DNA of 64,000 nucleotides, from positions 32,001 through 96,000 of the IMG/VR virus record IMGVR_UViG_3300014208_000024, one strand, 5' to 3'. Below are positions 2,661-18,510 of the stretch, in pieces. A program made the translations under genes and the position numbers. Below the pieces are notes generated by a model. The model saw only the letters and a list, made by a program, of their open reading frames with translations, searched no databases and was not told the origin of the DNA. Every line of letters starts with the position of its first letter. Within the stretch, counting starts at the first letter, position 1. Origin of the DNA: a virus (Duplodnaviria > Caudoviricetes).

Positions 2661-2808
2661 ATCCAGGGAAAATTTGCAAGGGTATAAATTACGTGCTCTA
2701 CCAACTGAGCTATCTCTCCAATTTTGTTTCTATTGCGGAGAGAGCAGGACTCGAACCTGCGACAACGGCATTAACAGTGCGAAGTAACCCTAACGATGGC
2801 CACTGGAA
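2661..2808 (-). ncRNA. Y-RNA-like element Y2 (permuted tRNA, Asn GUU loop)
   Basis: Family stem; order anticodon hairpin, T-arm, acceptor, D-arm. Confidence 0.75.
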
Positions 2809-2839
2809 TTATTTTCAATATTTTAAAGAACATATTTTG

Positions 2840-2913
2840 CGGGTATCAAGGGATTCGAACCCCCATGGTCTTGGTTAACGGCCAAGTGCTTCATCCAGTT
2901 CAGCCAAATACCC
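2840..2913 (-). tRNA. tRNA-Asn(GUU)
   Basis: CTTGG-CCGTTAA-CCAAG. Confidence 0.85.
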
Positions 2914-2917
2914 ATAA

Positions 2918-3138
2918 GAAAATTTCGGGGAAAAGCAGCAAAAGTGTTTTTTCTATTCTCTACCACTGAGCTACATCCCCCATGTTTTGTATGATATTTC
3001 ATACATTAATGCCGTTTTTTGTACATAATGTAGTACATATCCAACATTATTTGGAGGGATGGTGGGATTCGAACCCACGACCTTTTGAATCATAGTCAAA
3101 TGCGAAGTAACTCTTGCAATTGCCACCGAAAAATTTTC
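2918..3138 (-). ncRNA. Y-RNA-like element Y3 (permuted tRNA, AUG/His loop, long acceptor linker)
   Basis: Family stem; TTTGA-CTATGAT-TCAAA; T-arm precedes D-arm. Confidence 0.75.
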
Positions 3139-3140
3139 AA

Positions 3141-3153
3141 TATTTTAAAGAAC
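3141..3153 (-). promoter_or_regulatory. boxA-like antitermination element (representative of about 13 copies)
   Basis: GTTCTTTAAAATA; related copies near 264, 1744, 2641, 2819, 5217, 10263, 10465, 19513, 40571, 40697, 45084, 53024, all in or before RNA-gene blocks. Confidence 0.7.
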
Positions 3154-3158
3154 GTTGT

Positions 3159-3194
3159 AAAACAAAAAACCCAGACTCTTTCGAAATCTGGGTG
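3159..3194 (-). terminator. Attenuator terminator of Thr/His/Asn tRNA operon
   Basis: ACCCAGATT-TCGAAAG-AGTCTGGGT followed by TTTTTGTTTT. Confidence 0.85.
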
Positions 3195-3215
3195 CTTGTT
3201 TTTGTTTTATATGAT

Positions 3216-3305
3216 TTAACTCATAATAGACATATCACACCCAGATAAACATGTGGTATTATGTTTATGTGTATTCGTATTAATATGTATATTACTTGTT
3301 CTCAT
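3216..3305 (-). CDS. Leader peptide MRTSNIHINTNTHKHNTTCLSGCDMSIMS (Thr/His/Asn-rich)
   Basis: 29-aa ORF between promoter and terminator; 5 Thr, 4 Asn, 3 His; contains antiterminator TCTGGGTG. Confidence 0.8.
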   Translation of the reverse strand: MRTSNIHINTNTHKHNTTCLSGCDMSIMS

Positions 3306-3354
3306 TTCTTACTTTATTTTAAATAGTTAAAAAAATTGTTTATTTACCAATTTC

Positions 3355-3392
3355 TACGCAAATATATAAAAAAAGTTACATTAAAAGCAAGT
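3355..3392 (-). promoter_or_regulatory. Class I (probably early, host-RNAP) promoter TGTAAC-N-TAnnTTTGCGTA (representative of about 18 copies)
   Basis: Related motif near 5275, 7773, 10300, 10520, 19770, 23670, 25510, 27265, 27777, 30490, 32392, 33670, 38075, 40988, 42338, 45633, 48740; core resembles the Bacteroidota -7 element. Confidence 0.7.
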
Positions 3393-3443
3393 TTTTTTAT
3401 ATATTTTTTTAAATTATTTTTTTATTAATTGATTTCCAGTGTT

Positions 3444-4136
3444 TTATATTAAGCTCAAAATTGTCCTCTCAACAATTTTTTTCATATAATGCATATCTGT
3501 TTTATTTAAATTATAGTTTGGTGAAATAAAAGGAGCATGTGAATCCCATTTTCCACCCGTATTTCCATCTGTGGATTTTAATATTGTTTGTTTTCCCTCT
3601 CCCCTAAATGCTTTATAAGCGCCATCCTTTTCAGCTGATATTTCTAAAACAACATCTTCATAAAGCACTTCAACATCAACTCTTCCTGGTGCCCCAAACA
3701 TTATTTTATAATCTTCTGTGATTAAATCAAAAACTACAATTAAATTTCCTTTTTCATTAACACTTATATCTTTAATATTAATTGATTTTGGTTTTTCTTC
3801 AGCGCACATTTTACTTATAACCCACTTTATTTCTGAATCAATTTCTTTTTCTGTTTTTTCTGGGATCGGTATAATATTAAATGGATTTGTCAAAACTCTA
3901 TTTCCGCCTGTAAAAAGTAAATATTCTGCTCTTTCTGGAAACCATTTCAAAACTTTATGTTCGCCATATACTGGTTTAATATTATACACTGTTCTTCCAA
4001 CTAAATCTTCAAATTTTTCTATTCCCAATTTTTCTAATTGTTGTTCATATTCTTCTTTTGAGAAATCTCTAAAATTTGTAACATCAATTGTTGCAAGTTC
4101 TTGCAGTCTTTTTTTATATGATTCTGATAAATTCAT
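3444..4136 (-). CDS. Hypothetical protein with N-terminal LSESYKKRLQELA motif (probable virion protein)
   Basis: ORF; start moved to MNLSES; motif shared with 5308..5688. Confidence 0.7.
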   Translation of the reverse strand: MNLSESYKKRLQELATIDVTNFRDFSKEEYEQQLEKLGIEKFEDLVGRTVYNIKPVYGEHKVLKWFPERAEYLLFTGGNRVLTNPFNIIPIPEKTEKEIDSEIKWVISKMCAEEKPKSINIKDISVNEKGNLIVVFDLITEDYKIMFGAPGRVDVEVLYEDVVLEISAEKDGAYKAFRGEGKQTILKSTDGNTGGKWDSHAPFISPNYNLNKTDMHYMKKIVERTILSLI

Positions 4137-4137
4137 T

Positions 4138-4836
4138 TTAATAAGCGTAATTATATTTTGATTTTTTAGCTTTTTCCTTTCTCCATGTGTCATATTCTGA
4201 AGATGTGTTTTCGTCAAACCCAAAGTCAACCACAACAATTTTTGGAACTCCATCTCTTAAAACTTCTCCATAAGAAGATGTTCTTCCAAAATCTCCAGGA
4301 ACTGGATATTGATAATCGCTTATAAAATCTTGCATATCTATTGCAAATTCGTTTTCACTTAAGTCTGGAGCATTACTTCCCCAAAGTCTATCTCCACGCA
4401 TACTTGCCAACCACCTTACAAGATCTTCTGGAGTTGTTTTTGTTAATTCTTTAAATCTTCTTGGACTTACTTTCTTTGCAATTTCCATTTCTATCCACAT
4501 ATCATCTTGATCAACGTCAAACACTCTTGCTAAAACATCATAATTTTGTTTATATCCTTCTGATTCTGCACTATTTTGAGATATTCCCCTATCGTTTAAA
4601 GCAACCTTTAATACCTTCTCATCATCAATTTTGAACACTGCTCTAGATGAGCCAATTCCAACTTTTCCGAGCAAACGTTCTTTTGCATATTTTTGTTTTC
4701 CAGAAAAAGATCTTATATTTTTAAATTCATCGAAATTAAAGCTTGTTGGATAAGCCATTTCGTCAATGTGAAAATCTTTGTTTTCAGCAAACATTTCTTC
4801 AACACATTCTCTTATAATTTTTCTAACAAAATTCAT
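4138..4836 (-). CDS. Protein-kinase-like fold protein
   Basis: GIGSSRAVF Gly loop, VLKVA Lys, IVVVDFG. Confidence 0.65.
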   Translation of the reverse strand: MNFVRKIIRECVEEMFAENKDFHIDEMAYPTSFNFDEFKNIRSFSGKQKYAKERLLGKVGIGSSRAVFKIDDEKVLKVALNDRGISQNSAESEGYKQNYDVLARVFDVDQDDMWIEMEIAKKVSPRRFKELTKTTPEDLVRWLASMRGDRLWGSNAPDLSENEFAIDMQDFISDYQYPVPGDFGRTSSYGEVLRDGVPKIVVVDFGFDENTSSEYDTWRKEKAKKSKYNYAY

Positions 4837-4909
4837 TTAATAATTTTTATATAAATAGTTATAAAATGGAAAAACCCTCACGTTACTTATGCAAGGGTTT
4901 TTTAATATA

Positions 4910-5218
4910 AAGCAATTTTCTGGGAATTCTAGAGTGAGCGGTCACCTCGTATATCTCTGTTCAATTTCCATTATGGAACATCACCTAGTGAGGAACAAAG
5001 TTTAAGGCCAAATGTTTTAAGGTGTTCATTTTTCAACCCATAAACCTTAAGGGTTCATGTAATCTACTCTTTGCCTATCAATTCACCCAACACTTAAGTC
5101 GCAGCTTTAATATTGATTAACGTAAGGCTATGACATCTGAGCCGTTAGTCATTCTTTTTTTTAATGGTACTTAATCGTTGTCGAAGTATCTCAACATCTT
5201 TACCACAAAAAATTGCTT
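4910..5218 (-). ncRNA. Y-RNA-like element Y0 with about 250-nt non-tRNA cargo
   Basis: GTGGTAA...AGATACTTCG 5' arm, TTCCCAG 3' arm, terminal IR AAGCAATTTT; boxA upstream. Confidence 0.6.
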
Positions 5219-5307
5219 CAAAGAACTTATTAACTTATATAAATATAAAAAAAATTTTCATTTTCTATAAGCCTATACGAAAAATTATAAAAAAAGTTTC
5301 AAAAAAA

Positions 5308-5688
5308 TTATTTAAAATATCTAAATCCCTGAAACCCCTTCATAGGAATAGGTTCTATTTTGTGAAAAGGACCAGATCTCTCAATAAATTTTCCACTCCA
5401 ATTCTTTCCAGTGGTTGTACAATTAAAATTTTTTTCGGACATACCAACAATTTTCATCCAACCGATTATCGCTCCATTATATAATAAATAACATTTATTT
5501 CCAGGTTTAGTTTTAGGAAAGTTGTTTACTTTAAAATTCATTACCTGTTTATAATTTTCTACAGCCTTTAATTCCTTTTCATAATCTTTCCATTGAATTG
5601 ATTTTGGAATAGTGACAATAATATCCATTACATTGTCATTTATTCCAGCCAATTCTTGTAACCTGTTTTTATAATTTTCTGTTATCAT
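5308..5688 (-). CDS. Small beta-rich (ASCH/PUA-like) protein with virion-type N-terminal motif
   Basis: TENYKNRLQELAG start; KPGNKCYLLYNGAIIGWMKI. Confidence 0.5.
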   Translation of the reverse strand: MITENYKNRLQELAGINDNVMDIIVTIPKSIQWKDYEKELKAVENYKQVMNFKVNNFPKTKPGNKCYLLYNGAIIGWMKIVGMSEKNFNCTTTGKNWSGKFIERSGPFHKIEPIPMKGFQGFRYFK

Positions 5689-5693
5689 AAAAA

Positions 5694-5894
5694 CTAAGCT
5701 TTTTTATAATTATATTTTGATTTAATCATTGTATCAAAATAATTACCTGGAGAATCTGACTTTATTATTCCATTATATATTGTTTCTGGAACTGAAAAGT
5801 ATTTATATTTTCCGCCTTTAACAAAATCTATTGTTAAAATTTCGGTGGAGTTATTATATTCCACCGATCTTATTCTTGATGAATTTAACTGCAT
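5694..5894 (-). CDS. KTSC domain protein
   Basis: SSRIRSVEY...LTIDF..G.KYKYFSVP...Y....SDSPGNYF. Confidence 0.9.
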   Translation of the reverse strand: MQLNSSRIRSVEYNNSTEILTIDFVKGGKYKYFSVPETIYNGIIKSDSPGNYFDTMIKSKYNYKKA

Positions 5895-5983
5895 ATTCTT
5901 TTTATTTTAAATATACAACAATTTTAAAATAAATTCAATTGAATTATCTATAAAAAATTATTATATTTATTTAAAAAAGACAT

Positions 5984-6142
5984 ATGGAAAGAAATAAACC
6001 CAGGTTGGCCATAACAATTTCTCCTGAAATTGCAGAGAAATTAGAAAAACATAAATACAACAAATCAAAACTTGTAGACTCATTGTTAACAGATTATTTC
6101 AAAAAACTAGATGAAGATGTTGTGAAACATAAAAAAAATTAA
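5984..6142 (+). CDS. Small ribbon-helix-helix-like protein (52 aa, not in ORF track)
   Basis: MERNKPRLAITISPEIAEKLEKHKYNKSKLVDSLLTDYFKK; paralog at 28710..28853. Confidence 0.7.
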   Translation: MERNKPRLAITISPEIAEKLEKHKYNKSKLVDSLLTDYFKKLDEDVVKHKKN

Positions 6143-6204
6143 TTTCACAAGTGCTATTTTTATTTTTCTGCATATTTATAATAAACAATTAAATATTATA
6201 AATT

Positions 6205-6369
6205 ATGGCACGTAAAAAAATTAACCCAGAAAACAAAAAACAACATCTCTCTATTGTTGTTTCTTCAGAAAACTTTAACAGATTAAAAGAATTAGATTTA
6301 AACGAATCTAAATTCATCGACTGGTTATTAAAAGAACATTTCTTTAAATTAGAAAATGGAGGAAGGTAA
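6205..6369 (+). CDS. Small ribbon-helix-helix-like protein (54 aa, not in ORF track)
   Basis: KKQHLSIVVSSENF...NESKFIDWLLKEHF; paralog at 28490..28660. Confidence 0.7.
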   Translation: MARKKINPENKKQHLSIVVSSENFNRLKELDLNESKFIDWLLKEHFFKLENGGR

Positions 6370-6371
6370 TT

Positions 6372-7100
6372 ATGGAAACTAAAATATGCTCTAAATGCCA
6401 TGTTGAAAAACCTAATGATGAAGATTATTTTCCTAAAAGGAATAATAAGCTTGAATATAGATGTAAATCATGTCGTAAAGAATATTACGATATATGGAAA
6501 TTTAATAATGCAGAAGCTAAAAAACAATATGATAAAGATTATAGAGCTAAAAATTATGATAAACTTAAAAAATACACAAACGAATATAATGAAAATTTTC
6601 TATATAAGAACGGTGTAAAACGCCATACAAAATACTGGCAAAACAACAAAGAAAAAATAAAAACAAGAAGAGAGAAAAACAGAAATAATGAAAATATATT
6701 AAGGAACAAAAAAAGGAATGAGAGGCGAAAAGTTGACCCATTATTTAATCTACAAGAAAAAATAAGAACAAAACTTAACAAATTGTTTAAAAACAATGGA
6801 TATAAGAAAAACAAAAAAACAATTGATGTTATTGGATGTTCGTTTAAAAATCTAAAACTATATATAGAATCTAAATTTGAATCTTGGATGAATTGGGAAA
6901 ATCACGGATTATATAATGGACAGTTATATTATGGTTGGGACATAGACCATGTTATTCCATTGTGTACTGCTAAAACAGAAGAAGAATCTTTAAAATTATG
7001 GTATTATACAAATCTCCAACCTCTTTGCAGTAAAATAAATAGAGATATTAAAAAGGATAAAATTAATTTTAACTGTGCAGCAATTTTAAATTTCCCTTAA
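6372..7100 (+). CDS. HNH-like homing endonuclease
   Basis: CSKC...CKSC; WDIDHVIPL...YYTNLQPL. Confidence 0.8.
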   Translation: METKICSKCHVEKPNDEDYFPKRNNKLEYRCKSCRKEYYDIWKFNNAEAKKQYDKDYRAKNYDKLKKYTNEYNENFLYKNGVKRHTKYWQNNKEKIKTRREKNRNNENILRNKKRNERRKVDPLFNLQEKIRTKLNKLFKNNGYKKNKKTIDVIGCSFKNLKLYIESKFESWMNWENHGLYNGQLYYGWDIDHVIPLCTAKTEEESLKLWYYTNLQPLCSKINRDIKKDKINFNCAAILNFP

Positions 7101-7753
7101 ACACCTGTTTAAGGCTTGCTTTTTTCCCTGTTATATGGTCATGTACCAAATCGCTTTTAAAAGTATACATTCTTCTTTTATCTCCCCTAAATCCAGTTCC
7201 AATCTGTTCTTTTCTTTCTCTATGCTCTTTTTCTTTTTTATTAGAATCATATAGTTTTTGTACCCTTCTTGTCAATTCTTTTAGGGCAATTTCTTTGTTT
7301 TTTAGTTGACTTCTATCTTCATCACATCTTACTACCAGTCCAGTGGGAACATGCTTTAAATTCACACAAGAATAGGTGCGATTTCTTGCTTGTCCACCTG
7401 GACCTGTCCCATTTGTGATTTTAATTTCCACATCACTATCCTTTAGTTGGATTTTTACTTGTTGCCCAGGCTCCATTACAGCCACAGTGACTGAACTAGT
7501 GTGAACTCTGCCTTTTGATTCTGTTGGTGGAACACGACTAAACGTATGACCTCCAGCTTCATTTGAAAAGAATTTTTTTACGCCAGCACCGCTAAAGACA
7601 TAAAGAAATACATCCATCTTTCTCTTCTAAAGTAGAGATGGAAAAATTTTCAACCCTGGCCGCTTTTCTATAAACATCAGCCAAATCTTTTGCAAGAAGT
7701 TTTGAATCCATTCCTCCTTCTGCTGCACGAATTTCACAAATAATTGTTTCCAT
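7069..7753 (-). CDS. prfA: RF1-type peptide chain release factor (no domain 1), two ORFs joined by a +1 frameshift at CUU-UAG-C (7597..7591)
   Basis: EIRAAEGG (frame 0); VPPTES PxT motif and GPGGQ motif (frame +1). Confidence 0.85.
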
Positions 7754-7810
7754 AAGTTTTGGTTTTTGATAAATATACGAAAATTTTTCTTAAAAGATAC
7801 AGTTTTTTCA

Positions 7811-7820
7811 ACTATTTATT
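7811..7820 (+). promoter_or_regulatory. Class II (probably late) promoter motif TATTTAT(A/T) (representative)
   Basis: Found 10-30 nt upstream of nearly all virion-motif genes and homing endonuclease genes. Confidence 0.55.
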
Positions 7821-7834
7821 AAAAATATTTATAT

Positions 7835-8992
7835 ATGGAAAAAATTGAACTTACTTTTTTACGCCCAGATGAAGATACTGGGAACTTTATTTATAAAGGT
7901 ACAGATGGAAAAATATACATTAGTATTGATGGAATAATTCATGATGTAACACAAGAAAGAGAGCCTCTCGGTCCTGTTTACAACACATTTGTAAAACCAG
8001 GAGAACCTGTTTATAATCCAGAAGATAGATTTGGTAGAAATCCAGGTAGTAAAATTCAAACAGAAAACCATAAAAAATTAAAAAACTTTATTCAGGAAGA
8101 ATTAATAAAACTTCACAAAATAACACTTCTTGAAGAAGAAAAAAGACAAATCAATAAAGAACTAAGACTTTTAAAAGAAGGAAAAGAAGATTTGGTGGAT
8201 TATGATGTTCCAGAATGGGCAATGTCTGCTTTAATTAATGGAGATTTAAGTGGATTAGAAGATGAAGATATACAAAAAATAAATTCATTTACCGAATCTG
8301 TTGCAAAAGCTCATGGAAATGCTCATTTTATGCTTGGCGATATTGATGGTGAAGATAATCTTGGATTTAAACACTATAATGATATTGATAATTTAGGAAG
8401 CAATGTTTATAGGTTATATATTAATCCAGACAAAGAAACAAGTTTTAAAGATATACCATTTAACAAAAGATTACAAGGTGGAGAATATTTTGTTAAAGAA
8501 ACAAAAGATGTAGATGCAATGTATAAAAAAGCTGGAATGGAACCCCCACATCCTGGAAAAGGAATACATACTAAAAAATTTCACAAATGTGTTACTTCAG
8601 TTGGTGAAAAAGGTGGAAAAAACCCTTATGCTATCTGTATGTCCTCTTTAGGAAAAAATAAAGCTGTAAAAGCAGATCATAGAACAGAAGAAGGAAGTTC
8701 TCCAATGGTAGATGAAATCAAAAAACCAATTGTTCCAATATCCGAAAAAACAAAGGCTGTATTAAATAAATGGATTCAAGAAAAAGGATCAAAAGAAGCT
8801 GCAGTACAATTGATAAATAGATTAAGCGAAACAGGTATGGTTTCTGATCTTCCTGATAGTATGGAATATGGACAAGGAGTTAACAAAATTGAAGCTTTGT
8901 TAAAAAGTGGAAATTTAGATCAAGCATTTCATCTTGCAAAATCTCTAGCAAAAAAATTAGAGAGAAAAGCAATGAAAGACTTTGGATTTTAA
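7835..8992 (+). CDS. Multi-domain hypothetical protein (probable virion protein)
   Basis: ORF; internal KLKNFIQEELIKLHK motif similar to 49260 and 36985. Confidence 0.65.
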   Translation: MEKIELTFLRPDEDTGNFIYKGTDGKIYISIDGIIHDVTQEREPLGPVYNTFVKPGEPVYNPEDRFGRNPGSKIQTENHKKLKNFIQEELIKLHKITLLEEEKRQINKELRLLKEGKEDLVDYDVPEWAMSALINGDLSGLEDEDIQKINSFTESVAKAHGNAHFMLGDIDGEDNLGFKHYNDIDNLGSNVYRLYINPDKETSFKDIPFNKRLQGGEYFVKETKDVDAMYKKAGMEPPHPGKGIHTKKFHKCVTSVGEKGGKNPYAICMSSLGKNKAVKADHRTEEGSSPMVDEIKKPIVPISEKTKAVLNKWIQEKGSKEAAVQLINRLSETGMVSDLPDSMEYGQGVNKIEALLKSGNLDQAFHLAKSLAKKLERKAMKDFGF

Positions 8993-9031
8993 AAAGAAAA
9001 CAAAAAAGCCCCATCTCTGGGGCTTTTCCTT

Positions 9032-9289
9032 TTAAACATTTGGATTAACCAATTTCTGATCAACCCATTTTCCATTTTGTAAAACTTTGTTGACTTTTTC
9101 AACTCTTATTTCCCAAGAATTTGGAAAATCAGCCAACCTCGTTCTTTTTTTAGCTTCTTTGAGTGCCTCAATCTGAGCTTCGTGATATCTTTCACGTTTC
9201 TTAGATTCAGTTTCCACAAAGAAGTGTGGAGCCTCGTAACCCATTCTATGGATTGAACGTACCTTCCACAACCTGATTGTTTGATACAT
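9032..9289 (-). CDS. Hypothetical protein
   Basis: ORF ending at bidirectional terminator. Confidence 0.65.
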   Translation of the reverse strand: MYQTIRLWKVRSIHRMGYEAPHFFVETESKKRERYHEAQIEALKEAKKRTRLADFPNSWEIRVEKVNKVLQNGKWVDQKLVNPNV

Positions 9290-9519
9290 AAAAATTATGT
9301 AGATTTGATCCTAACATAAATTTTCTAATCAGGTTGAATTAAAGAATGTAGAGTTTTTTGTTTTTTTAATCATAGGAATTTTTTTTCAAACAAATTTCTT
9401 AAGTGGATTTTTCCACCTTTGTCTTAAAAGACTCTTTAAAATAGATATAAATATCTTCCTACTATAATAAATAGTAAAAAAAAATCTCAACCCTTTCGAA
9501 TTGAGATTTTTATAAAACC

Positions 9520-10250: not shown

Positions 10251-10370
10251 ATTTTTTATCAATATTTTAAAGAACGTATCTTACTTAATTTTCTACTCTA
10301 TACGCAAAGATAAGAAAAAAGTTTCAAAAAAACAAGTTTTTTTTATTTTTTTTTTAAAAAACTTTTTTTA

Positions 10371-10982: not shown

Positions 10983-10984
10983 TT

Positions 10985-11680
10985 ATGAAAAATTTTATCA
11001 GAAAAATTATAAAAAAACAAATAAACATTTTATTTGAAAACTCCTTAGAAGAACTAAACTCTGGACTCACAAGAGATCAAAAACAAATTGATATGGCAAG
11101 GAGACTTATGGGAGATGATTCAATTATTGTTTTAAACAAATTAGACTTTGGAGAAGAATTAACTTTCAGTGAAATGGAAGAAGCAAGAGACAAATATCTT
11201 GCAGATTATATATTCGCAAAGGCAAAATTAAACGGAAAAAGAAAAGTTGTTAATCCAATAAACCTAGAAGACTTAGAAGCTATATTTAATGTAAAAGGAA
11301 ACGTTTTAGATGGATATATGAATATATTAGTTAATAAATTTTCAAACGTCGAACAAATAAGCGATCTGGAAAGAAGCGCTTTGTTAAACATTGGAGGAGT
11401 AGATACCCCAACTAATGCAAGCAATGAAATAGCAAAAAAATATATCATTAAAATGCTTTTAAACTTAGATGTTCCTCAAGCTGGAGACAATAAGTGGACA
11501 AGAAATGATAGCATAGAAGCACACAAAGCTTACCAAATTGCAATGACAGATGAAGAATTTAGAAATATTGTTGAGAAAGTTCTGCAAAGAAGTGGAAAAC
11601 AAAATTCTAGATTATATAGAAAATTGAAAAAACTTTCAATTCCTCCAGTACCAGAAAAACCACTGGAAGAAATAAATTAA
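10985..11680 (+). CDS. Hypothetical protein, N-terminal IRKIIKKQI motif
   Basis: ORF. Confidence 0.7.
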   Translation: MKNFIRKIIKKQINILFENSLEELNSGLTRDQKQIDMARRLMGDDSIIVLNKLDFGEELTFSEMEEARDKYLADYIFAKAKLNGKRKVVNPINLEDLEAIFNVKGNVLDGYMNILVNKFSNVEQISDLERSALLNIGGVDTPTNASNEIAKKYIIKMLLNLDVPQAGDNKWTRNDSIEAHKAYQIAMTDEEFRNIVEKVLQRSGKQNSRLYRKLKKLSIPPVPEKPLEEIN

Positions 11681-11715
11681 CAAAAAACCCCCAAATTTCT
11701 CTGGGGGTTTTCTTT

Positions 11716-12099
11716 TTATAAACCGTATTTTCTGAAATAAGCCGTATTTGACATACTGGCATGTTCACTAGAACCACCCTTATCAAGAATGTAAAGTTTA
11801 AATTCTTCTGTGTCTAATTCAATTTCAGACTCAACTTCCATTTCAAACATCTTAATAAAGTCATCAAACATACCAACTCTATCAATTGGTTCAACTAAAC
11901 TTAAATGAAGTCCATTTTTCCCTTCTTCTAAGTCTTTTTTAATCTGCTCTAACTGTGATAAACCCTCAAGTTTATAAGCCTTTTTTGCTTTTGCATACTC
12001 AACAATGTGATTTTCTTTGTTTTGTAACAAGGCAGCAATAACCTCTTTCGTTTTTACTTTGATTTTTCTTTGCATAATTCTAGAAATTGGTGTTCCCAT
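11716..12099 (-). CDS. Hypothetical protein
   Basis: ORF; start moved to MGTPIS. Confidence 0.7.
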   Translation of the reverse strand: MGTPISRIMQRKIKVKTKEVIAALLQNKENHIVEYAKAKKAYKLEGLSQLEQIKKDLEEGKNGLHLSLVEPIDRVGMFDDFIKMFEMEVESEIELDTEEFKLYILDKGGSSEHASMSNTAYFRKYGL

Positions 12100-12220
12100 A
12101 ATTTTATTTTTAATTATATGCAAATATATAAAATAATTATTATAATACAAAATAAATAGCAAACTTTTTAAGTTCAACTTCAATTATCGTTTTTTATAAT
12201 ATTTATATAAAAAATAAATT

Positions 12221-13027
12221 ATGAATAAATGTTTAAATTGTGAAAAAGAAACAAAAAATGAAAAATTTTGTTCTATAAGTTGCCAAAATAAATTTCAAAA
12301 ATCAAAACAAATTGATAAAAGACTGGGATTATTTATTGAGTTTACAATTAAGTGTTTTAAATGTGGAGGTTCGCTCGTTGTTAGAGAAAGAGAAAAATTA
12401 TTCCCACAAAAAGAAAAATACTATTGTAGTAGAAATTGTGCTAATTCAAAACCTCATAGTGATAATACAAAAAATAAAATTAGAAAAAAAGTCAAAGATT
12501 TTATAAGAAAAAATCCAGATAAATATGGGAAGGGCGTTGTGAAAATAATTTGTAAAAAATGTCTTAAAGAGTTCGTTGTTCCTTATGGACAAAGAGATAG
12601 ACAGTTTTGTTGTAAAAAATGTGCTTCTGAATGGATGAAAAATTCTCCTTTATCACAAACAACTGGGTTGTTATCTTCACAAATACAAAAAAAATCAAGA
12701 AGAAGTAAAAACGAAATGTATTTTGCTGAATTATGTAAATCTTATTTTAATAAAGTTTTAACCAACGAACCAATGTTTAATGGTTGGGATGCAGATGTAA
12801 TAATTGAAGATATAAAAACTGCAGTTCTTTGGAATGGAAAATGGCACTATGAAAAAATAACAAAAAACCATTCTGTTAAACAGGTTCAAAATAGAGATAA
12901 AATAAGAATTAAGGAAATAGAGTTAAAAAACTACAAATATTATATAATAAAAGATATGGGAAGATATGATTTAAAATTTGTTAATAAAGAATTTGAAAAA
13001 TTTATAAAACATGTTGGAAAAATATAG
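12221..13027 (+). CDS. Zn-ribbon plus PD-(D/E)XK (Vsr-like) endonuclease
   Basis: CxxC/CSxxC repeats; SKNE...WDADVII...WNGKWHY. Confidence 0.75.
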   Translation: MNKCLNCEKETKNEKFCSISCQNKFQKSKQIDKRLGLFIEFTIKCFKCGGSLVVREREKLFPQKEKYYCSRNCANSKPHSDNTKNKIRKKVKDFIRKNPDKYGKGVVKIICKKCLKEFVVPYGQRDRQFCCKKCASEWMKNSPLSQTTGLLSSQIQKKSRRSKNEMYFAELCKSYFNKVLTNEPMFNGWDADVIIEDIKTAVLWNGKWHYEKITKNHSVKQVQNRDKIRIKEIELKNYKYYIIKDMGRYDLKFVNKEFEKFIKHVGKI

Positions 13028-13035
13028 TAACAGTG

Positions 13036-13112
13036 TAGCAACAGTGGGATTCGAACCCACAAAAATCCTCCGCCTTATGAGAGCGTTGCGCTACCAATTG
13101 CGCCATGTTGCC
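13036..13112 (-). tRNA. tRNA-Met or Ile2 (CAU)
   Basis: CGCT-CTCATAA-GGCG. Confidence 0.8.
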
Positions 13113-13120
13113 ATTAAAAT

Positions 13121-13329
13121 AATGATGTGTGAAAGCCTCCTACTTTCATAATCTCACTGACTTACACAGTTAGAGAGTCTCGGAATTTCACAACAAAGAC
13201 AATTACAATCAAACAAATGCTAATTCTTTACGAAATGAGCACCTTGCTTTAACCGTGTTGCCAAACACATCGCCTTTGTTGATCTACTGCTGAACTCTTA
13301 ATTACAGCTCTTATGCAAACACATCACTT
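13121..13329 (-). ncRNA. Rod-shaped ncRNA with central bubble, 6S-like candidate
   Basis: Closing helix GTGATGTGT/ACACATCAT, 13-bp CAACAAAGGCGAT/ATTGTCTTTGTTG, symmetric 11-nt bubble. Confidence 0.5.
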
Positions 13330-13408
13330 GCTTAAAAACAATTCATGCATTAATTGTTAGAAAGCGGGGGAAACACTCTCTCCTTTGCAAGTAAAGATTG
13401 TGAATCCT

Positions 13409-14311
13409 TTATCTTATAATATTTAATTCCTTTTCAGTCCATACCTCAAATGGTATGTTATTTTTTTTACAATATTTTTTAACAGCTTTAATTTTTTCTT
13501 TATTATTCCATCTATTTAACAATCTTTTTGGCTTAACTTCAACTATTTTTTTTAGTTCTTCTTTGTAAAAAATTTCAAAATCTATAATTGTACTTCTTTT
13601 TCCATTCCTATATTTTATATTGTATGGCTCGTAATTATAATAAAGAACATTATCATCTTTTTCTAATATTTCCATAGCTATTAACTCATAAGAACTTCTG
13701 TATTTTATTTCTTTTTTATTTTTATTACTATAATAAATTCCACCTTTATATTTTTTATGTGATGGAGAAATCCCAAACATTCCATTGCTTTTTCCGCTAT
13801 TTTTTCCTTTTATAGAATTTGATATTTTCTTTTTCACATCCTCGCTTTGTGATGCACATTTTTTAGAACAATAAATGTTTTCATGCTTATTAACTTCTTT
13901 TCCACAAAATTTACATCTTGGTTTTTCTTTTATATTTTTTTTCTTACCTGCTTCAATACGCTCTATTAAAAATCCAAACGCACCATTTTCTCTAATGCGT
14001 TTTTTTATAGAATCTCCTATGTTTTTTTTCGTTTTTTCTGATTGAATTCTTTTGTTTGCACAACTTCTAGAACAAAACATAGAATATTTTTTTTTCTCAA
14101 AATCTGTTTTTTTTAAAATAATCTCATATTTTTTTCCACATCTCAAACATCCAAACTCATACTCTAATCTTTCTATTTTTCTACTATTAGATGCTTTTTG
14201 TATCATGTTTTTTTTGTTTGGGTTTTTTTTACAATTAATTATATGACCACCAAGTTGTTGTTGCTTGTCATATTTTATTAATTGTCCACAATATTTACAT
14301 TTTTTTTCCAT
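13409..14311 (-). CDS. Homing endonuclease, Zn-ribbons plus TnsA-like PD-(D/E)XK domain
   Basis: YRSSYE...YEPYNIKY...IDF...IVEVKP. Confidence 0.8.
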   Translation of the reverse strand: MEKKCKYCGQLIKYDKQQQLGGHIINCKKNPNKKNMIQKASNSRKIERLEYEFGCLRCGKKYEIILKKTDFEKKKYSMFCSRSCANKRIQSEKTKKNIGDSIKKRIRENGAFGFLIERIEAGKKKNIKEKPRCKFCGKEVNKHENIYCSKKCASQSEDVKKKISNSIKGKNSGKSNGMFGISPSHKKYKGGIYYSNKNKKEIKYRSSYELIAMEILEKDDNVLYYNYEPYNIKYRNGKRSTIIDFEIFYKEELKKIVEVKPKRLLNRWNNKEKIKAVKKYCKKNNIPFEVWTEKELNIIR

Positions 14312-14365
14312 TTTTTTGTATTTATTTTACTATAAATATCAGCAAAAAATAAAAATTGAACTCTG

Positions 14366-14437
14366 AGCGGTATACTGGATTTAAACCAGCGACCTTCACA
14401 TTGGCAATGTGACATTCTATCACTGAACTAATACCGC
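14366..14437 (-). tRNA. tRNA-Gly(GCC)
   Basis: TCACA-TTGCCAA-TGTGA. Confidence 0.9.
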
Positions 14438-14440
14438 ATA

Positions 14441-14607
14441 AAATTAGGGAAATTTCGAACTAAGCATTTTTCTTTTTCTGCCCCATTTAACCACTCTGGA
14501 ACCCCCCCGAATTACTCCTTATTTGTCGAGGGGGATGGATTCGAACCACCGAAGGCTTACGCCAGCAGATTCCTTATCGAAGTAACTTAATTTGTTACCA
14601 CTAATTT
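14441..14607 (-). ncRNA. Y-RNA-like element Y4 (permuted tRNA-Tyr-type body, no anticodon loop)
   Basis: Family stem; long variable arm, T-arm, acceptor, D-arm CAGAGTGGTTAAA. Confidence 0.75.
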
Positions 14608-15387
14608 ATATTTTTTATTCCAATTTTCTATTTTGTTTTTTAAATCATCTAATGAAATAGAACATTTTTTATTTTTACTTGAATTATTTGAATGAACCAT
14701 TAATTTGCAATTTGCTGGATGAGAAATAATATTTGAATCAATTTTTTGTTTAAAACCTTCCGAAATTGAAAACATGTGATCTCTACTAATTCCATTTAAG
14801 TTATTCCCTTTATTCTTTGCACAATACCATCCAAATTTTTTAATCAACTCAAAGTCAAATTCTTCTACGAAATCTTTTAGATTAAAATTAAATCGACACT
14901 CTGATTTATATATATTAAATTCAGTCATCTTTTTTTTATCAAAAATTTTTCTACAATTTATCCCACAAAATTTATTTTTTCTTTTTTTAAATGGCAAAAT
15001 AGCATTACACTCTAAACAAAAATTTGGATTTTCATAATATTTGTCAATACCATTTTTTTTAATATTAGCATTTTTAATGTTTTCTTTTGCTTTGTCACTA
15101 AAAACAACTTTTCTGCCAGTATTTTTCTTATTGTTAAATGATGTAGAACAACTTAAAGAACAAAAAGTATTAAACCTTTTTTCGTATGAAATTAAATTAC
15201 CACAATGTTTACATTTTTTAATATCAATTTTAGGTTTATGAAATTCATTATAACAAGTTAAGGAACAAAAATGTTTTCTTCCCATTTTTTCACTTCTTTT
15301 AAATTCTGTTTTTGTTTTTTCAAACTCATTTTTACAATTTTCGCAAATTATTAAAATTGTTTTTCTATTATTCTTAAAAATTTTCAT
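14587..15387 (-). CDS. Zn-ribbon HNH-like homing endonuclease
   Basis: CxxC repeats; ISRDHMFSI...HPANCKL. Confidence 0.75.
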   Translation of the reverse strand: MKIFKNNRKTILIICENCKNEFEKTKTEFKRSEKMGRKHFCSLTCYNEFHKPKIDIKKCKHCGNLISYEKRFNTFCSLSCSTSFNNKKNTGRKVVFSDKAKENIKNANIKKNGIDKYYENPNFCLECNAILPFKKRKNKFCGINCRKIFDKKKMTEFNIYKSECRFNFNLKDFVEEFDFELIKKFGWYCAKNKGNNLNGISRDHMFSISEGFKQKIDSNIISHPANCKLMVHSNNSSKNKKCSISLDDLKNKIENWNKKYKLVVTN

Positions 15388-15459
15388 ACTTTTATTTTTC
15401 TTATAAATATTAAAAAAAAATAAAAGTGGAGTTTTTTTGAGTCGAACTTGTATGCTTAG

Positions 15460-15533
15460 TGGAAGTGAAGGGTTTCGAACCCTCATACCTTATGCTTGCA
15501 AAGCATCTGCTCAGCCAATTGAGCTACACCCCC
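15460..15533 (-). tRNA. tRNA-Ala(UGC)
   Basis: TTTGCAA loop, G3:U70. Confidence 0.9.
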
Positions 15534-15615
15534 AGATTTCCTATTAACTCTTCCATTCACCCTAAAGTGGGTGGGTTTACAGAACTTCGGAAAGACTTTC
15601 GTCTTGTTCAATTAG

Positions 15616-15689
<74 letters not shown>

Positions 15690-15780
15690 AAATGATAGTC
15701 TTTCCCATCTGTCACCCTTAGATGTGATTATTAAAAATAATCAGTGTATTGCGGGTTGTCTACACCATCCTTTTTCAAAA

Positions 15781-15927
15781 AACAGGGAAAATTTATAAGA
15801 GTTTGTTTTACGTGCTCTAACCGACTGAGCTATCCCGCCATTTTCCTTTTATTTGTGGCGGGAGCAGGATTCGAACCTACGGCGACGGCATTATGATTGC
15901 GAAGTAACTCTCATTGTTGCCACTGTT
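15781..15927 (-). ncRNA. Y-RNA-like element Y5 (permuted tRNA, Met CAU loop)
   Basis: Family stem; GCA-ATCATAA-TGC. Confidence 0.75.
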
Positions 15928-15945
15928 TTATCTTAAATATGTTAA

Positions 15946-16098
15946 AAATTAGGGAATTCTTCGCAGAATCTGTTTTTAAGCGCTCTAACCAACTGAGCTA
16001 TCCCCGCATTATTTTTTATTTAGAGCGGGGAACAGGATTCGAACCTATGGCCTCTGTCTTGGAAGGACGATGAAATTCTACATTTTGCCACTAATTTT
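15946..16098 (-). ncRNA. Y-RNA-like element Y6 (permuted tRNA, Gly UCC loop)
   Basis: AGTGGCAA/TTCCCT stem; GTC-CTTCCAA-GAC. Confidence 0.72.
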
Positions 16099-16102
16099 AT
16101 TG

Positions 16103-16177
16103 TCGGGGTAACTGGATTTGAACCAGCGAACACTTGCATCCCATGCAAGCCCATATAGCCATCTGTGGAACACCCCG
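16103..16177 (-). tRNA. tRNA-Pro(GGG)
   Basis: CTTGC-ATGGGAT-GCAAG. Confidence 0.85.
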
Positions 16178-16245
16178 TAAGGTGCGGAATTTAAAGTCGT
16201 GGAGTCACAATGCTCAACGGCACAAACCTTCCGCTGTTTGTTTTG

Positions 16246-16320
16246 TCTGGGTAAAGGGATTCGAACCCCCGAACACGTGCTTCCAAAGCACGCCCGTATA
16301 GCCATCTGCGGAACACCCAG
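16246..16320 (-). tRNA. tRNA-Pro(UGG)
   Basis: CGTGC-TTTGGAA-GCACG. Confidence 0.85.
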
Positions 16321-16426
16321 AAATAAAAGAGAGAACATCTTATGAGATGCTGTCCTAACCATCACCGTTCACGTTTCAGGTCAGTAACTCAAGTCTTGTG
16401 AACCTCCCAAGACCCTTTTCTTTTTG

Positions 16427-16501
16427 TCGGGTAAGCAGGATTCGAACCTGCGAACATCTGTCTCCGAAACAGACCCATATAGCCATCTGTGGAACTACCC
16501 G
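16427..16501 (-). tRNA. tRNA-Pro(CGG)
   Basis: TCTGT-TTCGGAG-ACAGA. Confidence 0.85.
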
Positions 16502-16521
16502 AATTTTAATTTCATTTTCAC

Positions 16522-16610
16522 TGGTAGCGGGTGAGGGACTCGAACCCCCGCTTCCCTTTTGGAGAAGTCCAGCTTATGAGACTGGCAAGATACCACTTCT
16601 CTAACCCGCA
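16522..16610 (-). tRNA. tRNA-Met(CAU) with long variable arm
   Basis: CCAGT-CTCATAA-GCTGG; CTTCTC/GGGAAG arm; 1:72 mismatch; CCA. Confidence 0.8.
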
Positions 16611-16617
16611 ATATTTG

Positions 16618-16699
16618 TCGAAAGGGAGGGAGTTGAACCCCCATAGCCGAAGGCGACGGTTTTACAGACCGCTGATTTAGCCGATTTACCATCCTTTCG
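16618..16699 (-). tRNA. tRNA-Tyr(GUA)
   Basis: CGGT-CTGTAAA-ACCG, class II arm. Confidence 0.85.
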
Positions 16700-16817
16700 A
16701 AAACTTTGGCTCATGGGTCAGTTACTATCCCATTTTTATTTAACGCTATTCCAAGGCGACTAACTTGTGTCCAACAACGCATCCACTATGCAGCCAAAGG
16801 GAGATTTTTAAAATTTG

Positions 16818-16902
16818 TGAGAGTAGAAGGATTCGAACCTCCAACGCCCCGAAGGGCAACAGGGTTACAGCCTGTCAGACATCCTGGTTGTCTAATACTC
16901 CC
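16818..16902 (-). tRNA. tRNA-Tyr(GUA)
   Basis: ACAGG-CTGTAAC-CCTGT, class II arm. Confidence 0.85.
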
Positions 16903-16906
16903 ATTT

Positions 16907-17058
16907 AAATCAGGGTAAAAGCGAATAAGCTTTTTTGTTTTTGAATTTTTCCCCATAGTTTAAAATTTAATTGGTGGGGAAAGCAGGATTCGAACCTACA
17001 ATGTTTAGTTTTACAGACTATTTTCTTCCGAAGTAACTCATTCTGTTGCCACTGATTT
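16907..17058 (-). ncRNA. Y-RNA-like element Y7 (Tyr GUA loop, T-arm, acceptor with ACCA, no D-arm)
   Basis: Family stem; TAGT-CTGTAAA-ACTA. Confidence 0.7.
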
Positions 17059-17059
17059 G

Positions 17060-17131
17060 TGGAGGATAACGATACCGATTCGTTGGTCTGTTGCTTGCAA
17101 AACAACCGCTTTACCATTAAGCTAAGCCCCC
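17060..17131 (-). tRNA. tRNA-Ala(UGC), atypical T-loop
   Basis: GTTGT-TTTGCAA-GCAAC; G3:U70; T-loop ATCGGTA. Confidence 0.7.
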
Positions 17132-17811
17132 AATTTATAATAAGAGAAAATGTGATTTTTATGAGATTTATTAACACCTCTACAAACCTTAGAAACACAA
17201 TTCCAATCAAACCCATCTTCTATAACTTGCCTTCCAAAATTATAAATTTTTATCAAATTATTTTCTAAATTATAACAAAAAACTTTTTTACAATTCTTAC
17301 TATTTATTCCACTATTTTTTTCTTTTGTTTTTTCACTCCATTTTAATCCAACTCTTTTAGCAGACATTTTTTCTTTACTTTCTTTAGAATGATTTTTTCC
17401 ATAAAATCCATTTTTATCTCCAAGACAACTTGTTTTTCTTGTTTTTGACATCTTTATTTTTGATTCTTCCGAGTGTTTGAAAATTCCTTTTTTACCTTTG
17501 TTCCAAGGAACAACACTGAATGAACCATCTCCACCATTTGTCATATTTGTAAGCTCAAACCCCCAAGTTTTAATTTGAGAAATCCAATATTTTTCCCAAA
17601 AATCACAACTTAACTCATCAGTTTCTTCTATGATAAAAAGTTCTGGTAACAATCCATTTTTTTTTAATTTTTTAACCCAAGCAGTTTTTTTTGTATTTTT
17701 ACTTTCATTTAAATGGTCTCTAAATCTTCTTTCTACCCTATATGTTTTTCCAACATATTTTATACTTTTATTTCTTGGGTCAGAAAGTAAATAAATATAA
17801 ACTTTTTTCAT
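17122..17811 (-). CDS. GIY-YIG homing endonuclease with NUMOD3/NUMOD1 motifs
   Basis: YIYLL...KYVGKT...R; GFYGKNHSKESKEKMS. Confidence 0.9.
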   Translation of the reverse strand: MKKVYIYLLSDPRNKSIKYVGKTYRVERRFRDHLNESKNTKKTAWVKKLKKNGLLPELFIIEETDELSCDFWEKYWISQIKTWGFELTNMTNGGDGSFSVVPWNKGKKGIFKHSEESKIKMSKTRKTSCLGDKNGFYGKNHSKESKEKMSAKRVGLKWSEKTKEKNSGINSKNCKKVFCYNLENNLIKIYNFGRQVIEDGFDWNCVSKVCRGVNKSHKNHIFSYYKLGA

Positions 17812-17846
17812 ACTTTTTTATTATAAATATAATAAAAAAAAATGAA

Positions 17847-18206
17847 TTATGGATTAATTAATGGATTTATTTTTTGTTTTGTTAATTTATATACCCTATT
17901 ATTAAAATCTTCTAATAAAGATTTGGGTATTTTTATTTTTTTATCTTCAAATTGTTTAAGTATTTCATACTTAGAAAAACACCCTTCAACAATACCCTCT
18001 GACCACATATTAATATGCAACCCCCAAGATTTTTTTCCCATAATTACAGTTTTCAAAATGTTTGGGTGACAACTTTTAAGATTATTAATTTTTATTTCAC
18101 CATTTTCAAATTTTCTGAATCCAAATTTTCCATCATCAGAATCCAGATCAAATTCCACTTTAACATCTGAACCGCAGAAAGTAAGTATTCCACATCTATA
18201 AGACAT
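17847..18206 (-). CDS. Hypothetical protein
   Basis: ORF. Confidence 0.6.
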   Translation of the reverse strand: MSYRCGILTFCGSDVKVEFDLDSDDGKFGFRKFENGEIKINNLKSCHPNILKTVIMGKKSWGLHINMWSEGIVEGCFSKYEILKQFEDKKIKIPKSLLEDFNNRVYKLTKQKINPLINP

Positions 18207-18435
18207 TAAAAAAAACGTGAAGATTTCGTTAAACTTTTCAGAATACTTTTGTAATCTTTTATGATTTCTTGTACCAGAGATTTGTTTTTTTTCTTCAATT
18301 TTTCTTAACCTCTCTTTAATTGATTCGCTTTTCGCATGGCTGTTCCCTCCAAAGTTTTAATTATTAATATGATAAAGTTGATTTTGCTCAATATCATTGT
18401 TAGCTTTATCGTTCAAAAACTATGATATTATATTG

Positions 18436-18509
18436 TAAATCAGGGAATAGTTACCGAGGGAGTTTTTTGATTTGCAGTCGAAGTATCCCTACTGATTGCC
18501 ACTGACTTT
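18436..18509 (-). ncRNA. Minimal Y-RNA-like element Y8 (Cys GCA loop only)
   Basis: Family stem closing GA-CTGCAAA-TC. Confidence 0.65.
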
Positions 18510-18510
18510 G

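Follow-up and report, generated by a model that had tools for sequence, protein, structure and literature searches.

The question raised by this locus is why Y RNAs encoded among the tRNA genes of a bacteriophage should carry small hairpins that resemble the anticodon arm of a tRNA. The DNA analysed is a window of 64,000 nucleotides (nt), bases 32001-96000 of the 372,283-base pair (bp) virus record IMGVR_UViG_3300014208_000024, from a groundwater metagenome. A preliminary description of the window had noted a series of Y-like RNAs (here Y1 to Y9), and proposed that their hairpins present anticodons matching the amino acids of their own tRNA operon, perhaps as decoys for anticodon nucleases. 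We conclude, with somewhat better than even confidence, that these are YrlA-class Y RNAs that would be partners of the phage's own Ro60 protein, that the effector module is a whole tRNA permuted between nt 26 and 27, and that the hairpin is a true anticodon arm. The YrlA class itself was already known; what is new is the reinterpretation of its V stem-loop as an anticodon arm.

The hairpins described earlier are present in Y2, Y3, Y5, Y6 and Y7, each with a 7-nt loop in exact tRNA register. Following the sequence UUACUUC the five RNAs can be parsed without gaps into a 17-nt arm (5+7+5), a 5-nt variable loop, a 17-nt T arm, the 7-nt 3′ strand of an acceptor stem and a discriminator nucleotide. 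On the 3′ side of the discriminator there is a loop (exactly 16 nt long in Y2, Y5 and Y6), and then the perfectly complementary 7-nt 5′ strand of the acceptor stem, the dinucleotide UA and a D arm, the latter being absent from Y7. In all five the 7-nt loop ends exactly 10 nt before the T stem, corresponding to nt 27-43 of a tRNA plus a variable loop of 5 nt. On joining nt 26 to nt 27 in silico, the program ARAGORN called tRNA-Asn(GUU), tRNA-His(AUG), tRNA-Met(CAU) and tRNA-Gly(UCC) for Y2, Y3, Y5 and Y6 respectively. Judged by sequence, the modules of these four RNAs are complete tRNAs that are circularly permuted at 26/27, with the Y stem lying at the break. Viewed as tRNAs, they do not have a contiguous cloverleaf with a 5-bp stem and free acceptor ends, and they are passed by ARAGORN only after joining of 26 to 27.

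It had been suggested that the modules resemble tRNAs opened at the anticodon and clamped by the Y stem. The clamp is as described, but the break lies at nt 26/27; an opening at the anticodon loop is seen in Y4 alone, where the anticodon stem GCAGA/UCUGC continues into the Y stem. There are three topologies in total, i.e. permuted at 26/27 (Y2, Y3, Y5, Y6 and Y7), opened at the anticodon loop (Y4 only) and unpermuted (Y1, together with a tenth copy, Y0, that lies outside the window). A CCA sequence directly after the acceptor half was claimed for both Y3 and Y7; Y7 does have A73-CCA, but in Y3 C73 is followed by CAA. The 7-bp acceptor stem is perfect in 19/19 of the arm-bearing members analysed, and C74 is present in 16/19.

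The ends of the modules are often coherent with the anticodon. Four of the five members with a UCC loop have U73 together with G1:C72, C2:G71 and G3:C70, which we take to be the glycine identity set of E. coli; these are the pairs with which the acceptor stem of Y6 begins. A member with a UAG triplet has a leucine-type D arm, A73 and G37, and G37 is found in both of the loops with G36 (CAG and UAG) that do not belong to the Y3 lineage. This coherence of anticodon, discriminator and acceptor or D arm fits modules that were taken from real tRNA genes of the given isotype.

Relatives were collected by pattern scans of IMG/VR and metagenome contigs, and the arm was assessed with the T arm as anchor in 25 distinct permuted-type Y RNAs. 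The closest relative is the 229-kb contig G001, with at least 10 Y copies. An arm in tRNA register with all three inner pairs is found in 18 of the 25, compared with a mean of 3.7 for shuffled upstream segments and a largest value of 11 in 2000. Of these 18 arms, 16 have U33, 17 have a purine at position 37 and 15 have both, for which the shuffled segments gave a mean of 0.5 and a maximum of 4. Orthologs are not independent, so these counts overstate the number of events; the excess is nevertheless far outside the shuffled distribution. The stems of the arm covary among paralogs and orthologs (UUUGA/UCAAA, UUUGU/ACAAA, UAGU/ACUA, GUC/GAC and UUCGG/CCGAG).

The lineages differ in how the loop has evolved. 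The 13-nt hairpin of Y6 is identical in four phages, with 0/13 variable columns versus 54/138 (39%) elsewhere in the RNA (P = 0.0016), and the variable columns include compensated changes in the T, acceptor and D stems. A loop-masked scan for further Y6 orthologs returned G001 only, plus chance matches in coding DNA. In the Y5 lineage the scaffold GCA-N7-UGC-CG is invariant across differing loops, which are AUCAUAA in two phages, AUCAGGA in one (CAG with G37) and AUGGGA in one. The paralog Y2 has CUGUUAA in the Y5 scaffold, and more distant phages have CUCCUAA and CUAUGGA. The copy with AUGGGA adjoins a tRNA-Pro(GGG), and the tRNA-Pro(GGG) of the phage studied here has the loop AUGGGAU, with six letters in common. 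In this lineage 4/7 of the loop columns are variable versus 42/138; the loop is not significantly more variable, and we therefore make no claim of diversifying selection. The triplet of Y7 is GUA in two phages and GAA in two. The loops of the Y3 homologs are CUUGAUA, CAUGAAA, CUUGAAC and CUAUUAA. The 'His AUG' that had been assigned to Y3 cannot be retained, as AUG is not a natural anticodon and is not conserved; UGA is common to three of the four homologs, in shifted registers, and the fourth has AUU.

Random variation of the loop among homologs was, in the preliminary description, one half of what would refute its proposal. The triplet does differ in four of five lineages (GCA/UCC, GUA/GAA, CAU/CAG/GGG and AUG/UGA/AUU), but loop size, U33 and purine 37 are kept, and the UCC of Y6 is invariant in four phages. 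The triplet appears to switch mostly among loops that obey the rules for anticodon loops, with a few copies that have decayed. The arm has probably been kept as a folded element with the shape of an anticodon loop, the triplet itself being only loosely constrained in most lineages.

The hairpin is also present in cultured phages. In Bacillus phage G, a blastn search with Y5 revealed a Y RNA that lacks annotation, about 2 kb upstream of the TROVE gene. It contains UUACUUC and GAC-AUUAUGA-GUC, then CG, a variable loop of 5 nt, the T arm, an acceptor strand and finally A73-CCA. Hairpins around the Ro60 genes of other cultured phages were found by eye and partly by script. The sequence UUCGA-CUGUUAA-UCGAG, with a 5-bp stem, occurs in Xanthomonas phage MET23-P3 and in CcrColossus, which also has UUCGC-AUCUGGA-GCGGG; the others are UCC-AUGCUAA-GGA in Gordonia phage Neville, UUCA-AUGAUAA-UGAA in Streptomyces phage BRock and UUCGU-AUUCCAA-ACGAG in Rhizobium phage TM21B. 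All these loops have 7 nt with U33 and a purine at 37, and the hairpin follows UUACUUC. For several of these phage RNAs the 5′ strand of the anticodon stem is made up by the conserved UUCG itself. No YrlA match at E < 0.01 was found near Ro60 in the Lak-like LR745206, the crAss-like cr111_1 or Vibrio phage SRILMA. Matches of Y5 in Vibrio phages VS1 and VS2 are ordinary tandem tRNAs and were rejected.

We turn now to the identity of the RNAs that carry the arm. A fuzzy search with the 5′ motif located ten Y-like RNAs genome-wide, all on the minus strand as are all the tRNA arrays discussed, nine of them in the window and Y0 7.9 kb upstream. They share the 5′ sequence (N)NG-UGGCAA-N7-(A/G)GUUACUUC(G), and every copy ends in CC plus the exact complement of its own first three bases. 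The outer stem covaries, since five different complementary triplets occur among the ten copies (CAG/CUG, UAG/CUA, CGG/CCG, AGG/CCU and AAG/CUU). The outer architecture is the same in six of the seven copies folded with RNAfold, i.e. 5 bp, a bulged U, GG/CC, an internal loop and a stem of 7-10 bp. The order of T arm, acceptor-like stem-loop and D arm, with the conserved nucleotides of the T and D loops, is found in Y2, Y3, Y4, Y5 and Y6; Y8 lacks the whole tRNA-like domain. Y9 ends 134 nt upstream of the Ro60 gene. Eight of the ten copies are within tRNA arrays 33-61 kb from Ro60, where most abut the ends of tRNAs, so that co-transcription with the array tRNAs is plausible.

These properties can be compared with those of known YrlA RNAs (RF02553), which are on record from over 250 bacteria and phages; they have stem-loops of T, acceptor-like and D type and a conserved YUAY preceding an optional V stem-loop, and the latter lies upstream of the T arm and was read as a variable arm (Chen et al. 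2014, PMC4201824). YrlA RNAs such as those of Salmonella Typhimurium, M. smegmatis and Ro60-encoding phages resemble the RNAs studied here in their link to Ro60, the pairing of 5′ and 3′ ends, the YUAY, the order of the arms and the optional fourth stem-loop, and the M. smegmatis RNA also in its 7-bp acceptor stem. By its position, the hairpin discussed here is equivalent to the V stem-loop and UUAC to the YUAY, which is present as UUAC or AUAC in nine of the ten copies and as UUUC in Y6. The differences are that here the fourth stem-loop is in exact anticodon-arm register with an anticodon-type loop, giving a complete tRNA permuted at 26/27, that there are ten copies per genome with eight in tRNA arrays, and that the 5′ motif is GUGGCAA in place of GNCGAA. 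The YrlA 5′ motif GNCGAAN0-1G is thought to contact Ro60; the ten copies carry G-U-G-G-C-(A/C)-A (GGC-AA), and the cultured-phage relatives GGCGUAG or GCGAA. The 2014 survey dropped matches overlapping tandem tRNA genes and kept only those within 4 kb of Ro60 (PMC4201824), and array-borne Y RNAs such as these would consequently have been missed. Neither an anticodon-arm reading of the V stem-loop nor a Y RNA enclosing a full permuted tRNA was met with in the literature, subscription journals being outside the search. That the RNAs are of the Ro60 type and built from tRNA parts, as first described, is borne out by the shared motif, the YrlA-type order and the tRNA geometry, and we accept as a premise that the ten elements would be Y RNAs of the YrlA kind. 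The features of the window are listed in Table 1.

Table 1. Y RNAs, their anticodon arms and associated genes, with positions in the window. RNA sequences are written 5′ to 3′.
Feature	Position	Strand	Description	Support
Y1	1608..1730	-	unpermuted tRNA-like module held by a Y stem	orthologs in G001, G002 and G004
Y2	2664..2805	-	YrlA-type; tRNA permuted at nt 26/27; loop CUGUUAA (GUU); G73	Rfam 44.9 bits; geometry; ARAGORN tRNA-Asn when un-permuted
Y2 anticodon arm	2766..2782	-	UCGCA-CUGUUAA-UGCCG	
Y3	2926..3128	-	as Y2 but with 73-nt acceptor loop and 8-bp acceptor stem (G-1:C73); loop CUAUGAU	Rfam; geometry; ARAGORN when un-permuted
Y3 anticodon arm	3084..3100	-	UUUGA-CUAUGAU-UCAAA; 5 bp	compensatory 31:39 change in G001
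Y4	14445..14603	-	class II-like tRNA module with a long variable arm; opened at, and lacking, the anticodon loop	
Y5	15783..15925	-	permuted tRNA module; loop AUCAUAA (CAU); A73	Rfam YrlA 36.7 bits; geometry
Y5 anticodon arm	15886..15902	-	UCGCA-AUCAUAA-UGCCG	
Y6	15950..16093	-	permuted tRNA module; loop CUUCCAA (UCC); U73	Rfam YrlA 30.8 bits; geometry
Y6 anticodon arm	16054..16070	-	UCGUC-CUUCCAA-GACAG	
Y7	16911..17054	-	anticodon arm (CUGUAAA), T arm, 7-bp acceptor stem, A73-CCA; no D arm	weak permuted-tmRNA match
Y7 anticodon arm	17005..17021	-	AUAGU-CUGUAAA-ACUAA	
tRNA-Ala(UGC)	17060..17131	-	stem GUUGU/GCAAC; loop UUUGCAA; G3:U70	G001 counterpart called tRNA-Ala
Y8	18441..18504	-	minimal Y RNA; no tRNA-like domain; GA-CUGCAAA-UC hairpin doubtful	
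Ro60 ortholog	51255..52760	-	TROVE domain; 501 aa	domain match
Y9	52894..53012	-	Y RNA directly upstream of Ro60; T arm; no anticodon arm	

Two candidate elements around Y6 were discarded. The Rfam 'tRNA' at 15856-16007 is an artefact that fuses the D arm of Y6 with the T arm of Y5, and a pseudoknot between the loop of Y6 (CUUC) and GAAG in the 3′ strand was dropped when its partner proved not to be conserved in the relative L204.

The match between the hairpins and the surrounding operon holds in part. It is exact for four of six (GUU, CAU, UCC and GUA) and fails for Y3 and Y8; the probability of four matches is 0.037 relative to the phage's own 32 anticodons, and 0.003 relative to random triplets. 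About 8 of 16 lineages of relatives match the surrounding cluster, versus 20-30% expected (P = 0.007 to 0.07). The Cys GCA hairpin claimed for Y8 has only 2 bp, is not predicted by RNAfold, and reads CUUCCAA in the G001 ortholog. A loop-masked scan for RNAs of the Y8 type gave three more minimal Y RNAs, two of them with loops that are not anticodon-like. The operon to which a tRNA-Cys had been attributed has none, so Y8 does not match it; the tRNA in question is tRNA-Ala(UGC), and the phage has its sole tRNA-Cys about 26 kb off, in the Leu cluster. This tRNA-Ala has an odd T loop (AUCGGUA), and was found by Rfam and missed by ARAGORN. MET23-P3 is a 43-kb phage with no tRNA gene in the 9 kb examined around Ro60, showing that the hairpin is independent of neighbouring tRNA genes and that an operon match is no general rule.

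A number of observations speak against our interpretation. Only about half of the anticodons match a neighbour, the loops differ between orthologs, and the canonical form has been lost in some, L148 having a 6-nt loop and two others G33 or A33. A mismatch at 28:42 is conserved in the lineages of Y2/Y5 and of Y6, leaving only 3 secure bp, and the minimum-energy fold calculated by RNAfold has the hairpin for Y5 and Y7, a shifted variant for Y2 and none for Y6. The triplets of the Y3 lineage (AUG, AUU and UGA) do not correspond to its His-like acceptor end. Lastly, the matches to the Rfam YrlA model at a relaxed threshold (2669-2784, 44.9 bits; 15789-15897, 36.7; 15974-16057, 30.8; 2932-3106, 25.0) are all below the gathering score of 69 bits. 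YrlA-type RNAs beside Ro60 in cultured phages also score below 69 bits, however (MET23-P3 52.3, Neville 44.1 and phage G 36.2), and the cut-off thus does not separate the phage members.

How might such RNAs have arisen, and what would they do? An existing model has YrlA arising from dimeric tRNA transcripts (10.1101/312249). In line with this, the modules would derive from tRNA genes, and probably continue to exchange sequence with them; this would explain both the frequent coherence with one amino acid and the enrichment of neighbouring anticodons. Exchange would also be favoured by an open reading frame (ORF) of GIY-YIG/NUMOD3 type within the array, and by the homology of T and D loops that is common to all tRNAs. 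We infer the processing, the binding to Ro60 and the function as follows. The Y RNAs would be cut out of polycistronic tRNA transcripts. RNase P would then open the 7-bp acceptor stem-loop and the 3′ end would be completed to CCA, as in M. smegmatis, where the YrlA RNA with its 7-bp acceptor stem is cleaved by RNase P and has CCA added to it in vivo (PMC4201824). The resulting tRNA look-alike, tethered to Ro60, would present elbow, acceptor end and anticodon loop to tRNA-handling proteins, and would serve a phage set for surveillance and repair of tRNA, comprising Ro60, RtcB, an Rnl-type RNA ligase and a CCA-adding-type nucleotidyltransferase. All four are present in the gene set of the phage, which fits a role in tRNA surveillance or repair. 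TROVE proteins of jumbo phages have been linked to RNA repair (PMC7824862), and the Ro60 of a Thermus phage binds phage Y-like RNAs and the host PNPase (PMC12135203). A more specific proposal, that the RNAs are Ro60-tethered mimics of particular tRNAs, each with anticodon loop, discriminator and acceptor stem in keeping with one amino acid, which once cut by RNase P and completed with CCA are recognised and perhaps charged by the matching synthetase, or are seized or cut by an anticodon-directed nuclease, is tentative and on balance unlikely. The phage has no member of the class II synthetase families PF00587 and PF00152, to which the enzymes for Gly and Asn belong, so that a phage-encoded synthetase of those families is not the partner.

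The function first suggested, as decoys or baits for anticodon nucleases, is one to which we would assign a low probability. The loops might soak up host nucleases, or their cleavage might report an attack to Ro60 and RtcB while the phage tRNAs sustain translation. Loops that go on obeying the rules for anticodon loops even as their triplet changes from one ortholog to another would be in keeping with an arms race, the repair enzymes are in the phage, and loops of GUU and UCC type recur in unrelated phages. Several real tRNAs of the phage have the rare C33, recalling the nuclease-evading anticodon-loop mutations proposed for phage tRNAs (PMC10264068), and Y2 keeps the canonical CUGUUAA. Yet stems of 3 bp are poor copies of the 5-bp anticodon stem, the Y3-lineage triplets are not natural anticodons, the triplet is absent from the surrounding array in half of the lineages, and the loop of the Y5 lineage is not significantly more variable than the acceptor stem (4/7 versus 42/138). 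The phage tRNAs proposed or shown to counter tRNA-targeting defences (PMC10264068; PMC11555353) are alike in being encoded in arrays and in having the anticodon-loop sequence as the variable, but they are working replacements for cleaved host tRNAs, where the present RNAs appear to be non-coding and of the Ro60 type. Alternatively the arm could be a pure relic of the source tRNA genes, refreshed by gene conversion from neighbours and lacking a role of its own. This is consistent with the dimeric-tRNA model and the enrichment of neighbouring anticodons, with the decayed examples that have a 6- or 8-nt loop or have lost U33, with the armless copies Y4 and Y9 in the same genome, and with the Salmonella YrlA, which works without an anticodon loop (Wang et al., 10.1101/312249). 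Against it, the hairpin occupies a constant position in phages of Bacillus, Streptomyces, Gordonia, Caulobacter, Xanthomonas and Rhizobium as well as in these jumbo phages, that of Y6 is invariant where 39% of other columns vary, and U33 with purine 37 is kept in 15/18 arms; we consider a relic decidedly unlikely. Our ranking places a constrained, tRNA-mimicking recognition element first, a decoy or bait second and a relic third.

Two further explanations fare less well. The elements might be permuted tRNA genes, in which the Y stem is a processing signal, the ends at 26/27 are joined by RtcB and the acceptor loop is removed to give working tRNAs. As in the permuted tRNA genes of Cyanidioschyzon merolae and the two-piece permuted tmRNA, the 3′ part is encoded upstream of the 5′ part and the joining loop must be cut to give a CCA end; moreover the un-permuted sequences pass ARAGORN, and RtcB and a CCA-adding-type enzyme are in the phage. 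However, in place of a bulge-helix-bulge or an mRNA-like part, the break at 26/27 holds a Ro60-type stem, and as read from the sequence the two cuts would face each other at the end of a helix. The profile of the splicing endonuclease (PF01974) is absent from the phage, the 28:42 mismatch is conserved, and GUU, CAU, UCC and GUA each already have an ordinary tRNA gene in the same cluster. Y4, Y7, Y8 and Y9 have the same Y stem but cannot yield a tRNA, and the stem carries the conserved Y-RNA motif, with one copy abutting Ro60. We therefore regard this explanation as very improbable. That the hairpins arose by chance in AT-rich spacers is scarcely credible overall. The stems are short, that of Y8 having only 2 bp, and chance may account for it in Y8; for Y2, Y3, Y5, Y6 and Y7 it is excluded by the exact register in five copies, the comparison with shuffled segments, the covariation of the stem and the recurrence in distant phages.

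The unpermuted copies should be considered separately. ARAGORN calls a tRNA-Stop(UUA) at 1634-1706 within Y1, and this 'ochre suppressor' may be the cargo of a Y RNA instead of a translating tRNA. The corresponding cargo has an 8-nt loop in G001, the loop CUUUAAC in G002 and AUUUCCA in G004. Y1 and Y0 have the same topology as the Yrn1 RNA of Deinococcus radiodurans (PMC4201824), which also has an unpermuted tRNA-like part with a possible 5-bp 'anticodon arm'. Yrn1 differs in having a 6-nt loop and no clear D arm, where Y1 has a full cloverleaf. A further confusion with tRNA is found in CcrColossus (L277, NC_019406.1), which has at least six tandem Y RNAs at 2900-3900 upstream of its Ro60 gene. 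In one of these, containing UUCGC-AUCUGGA-GCGGG, the anticodon arm, T arm and acceptor strand are overlapped by an annotated tRNA-Gln (D866_gt024, locus 3074-3141), which is probably a misannotation.

The window contains three tRNA arrays (1139-2913, 13035-19498 and 39002-45067, from ARAGORN and Rfam), together with a GOLLD RNA and a signal recognition particle (SRP) RNA. The region 15700-17200 is matched by two groundwater DNA runs; there is no RNA run among the listed sequencing runs. C33 replaces the near-universal U33 in three tRNAs of the minus strand, i.e. tRNA-Asn(GUU) at 2839-2913 (loop CCGUUAA), tRNA-Asp(GUC) at 19426-19498 (CCGUCAC) and a CUA tRNA at 42251-42324 (CCCUAAA). These may be nuclease-evading variants, which would fit pressure from anticodon-loop nucleases, although this is suggestive only. 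ORFs are interspersed in the arrays on the minus strand at 17122-17811, 2017-2586 and 374-1177; one is homing endonuclease-like with GIY-YIG and NUMOD3, one has a helix-turn-helix (HTH), and the third is Cys-rich and HNH-like as judged by eye only. They could drive gene conversion among the tRNA and Y RNA genes. A tRNA-like element at 281-442 (minus strand) has a perfect T loop at 293-303 and a weak DUF2693 RNA match, and orphan T loops are also found at 44820-44830 and 45115-45125.

The 21-nt motif GTTCTTTAAAATATTGAAAAT occurs four times versus 0.12 expected, at 1736-1756, 2811-2831, 3133-3153 and 10255-10275, on the minus strand in each case. Three of the copies are found just upstream of Y1, Y2 and Y3, and the fourth upstream of sequence leading into the GOLLD match; comparable motifs stand before Y RNAs of the phage contigs L014, L029 and L063. 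The motif may serve non-coding RNAs as a phage promoter or as a processing signal. Promoter elements of Bacteroidota type (TTG ... TAnnTTTG) at about 3350-3395 and 10300-10345 on the minus strand precede the first tRNA/Y operon and the GOLLD region, hinting at a Bacteroidota host. A ClpB-like double AAA+ ATPase of 686 amino acids is encoded at 53678-55738 (minus strand), just upstream of Y9 and Ro60.

These RNAs bear on a question that has stood since 2014, namely what binds the tRNA-like half of the Y RNAs of bacteria and phages. In phages that half can be a whole tRNA, complete with an anticodon-type loop and with ends coherent for identity, and the field of candidates is thereby reduced to proteins that recognise the anticodon loop or the acceptor end, namely synthetases, enzymes that modify the anticodon loop, and anticodon nucleases. 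In sequence the RNAs have the look of intermediates, still nearly intact, on the proposed path from dimeric tRNAs. They also indicate that tRNA finders and annotations can mistake Y RNAs for tRNAs, as in the 'suppressor' within Y1 and the tRNA-Gln of CcrColossus. The hairpin is present in cultured phages, where mutation is possible. If these RNAs are indeed mimics of particular tRNAs, the phage would have in them a programmable set of baits or sensors by which an attack on a given tRNA is coupled to repair by Ro60 and RtcB, and what has been published as the V arm of YrlA would function as an anticodon arm.

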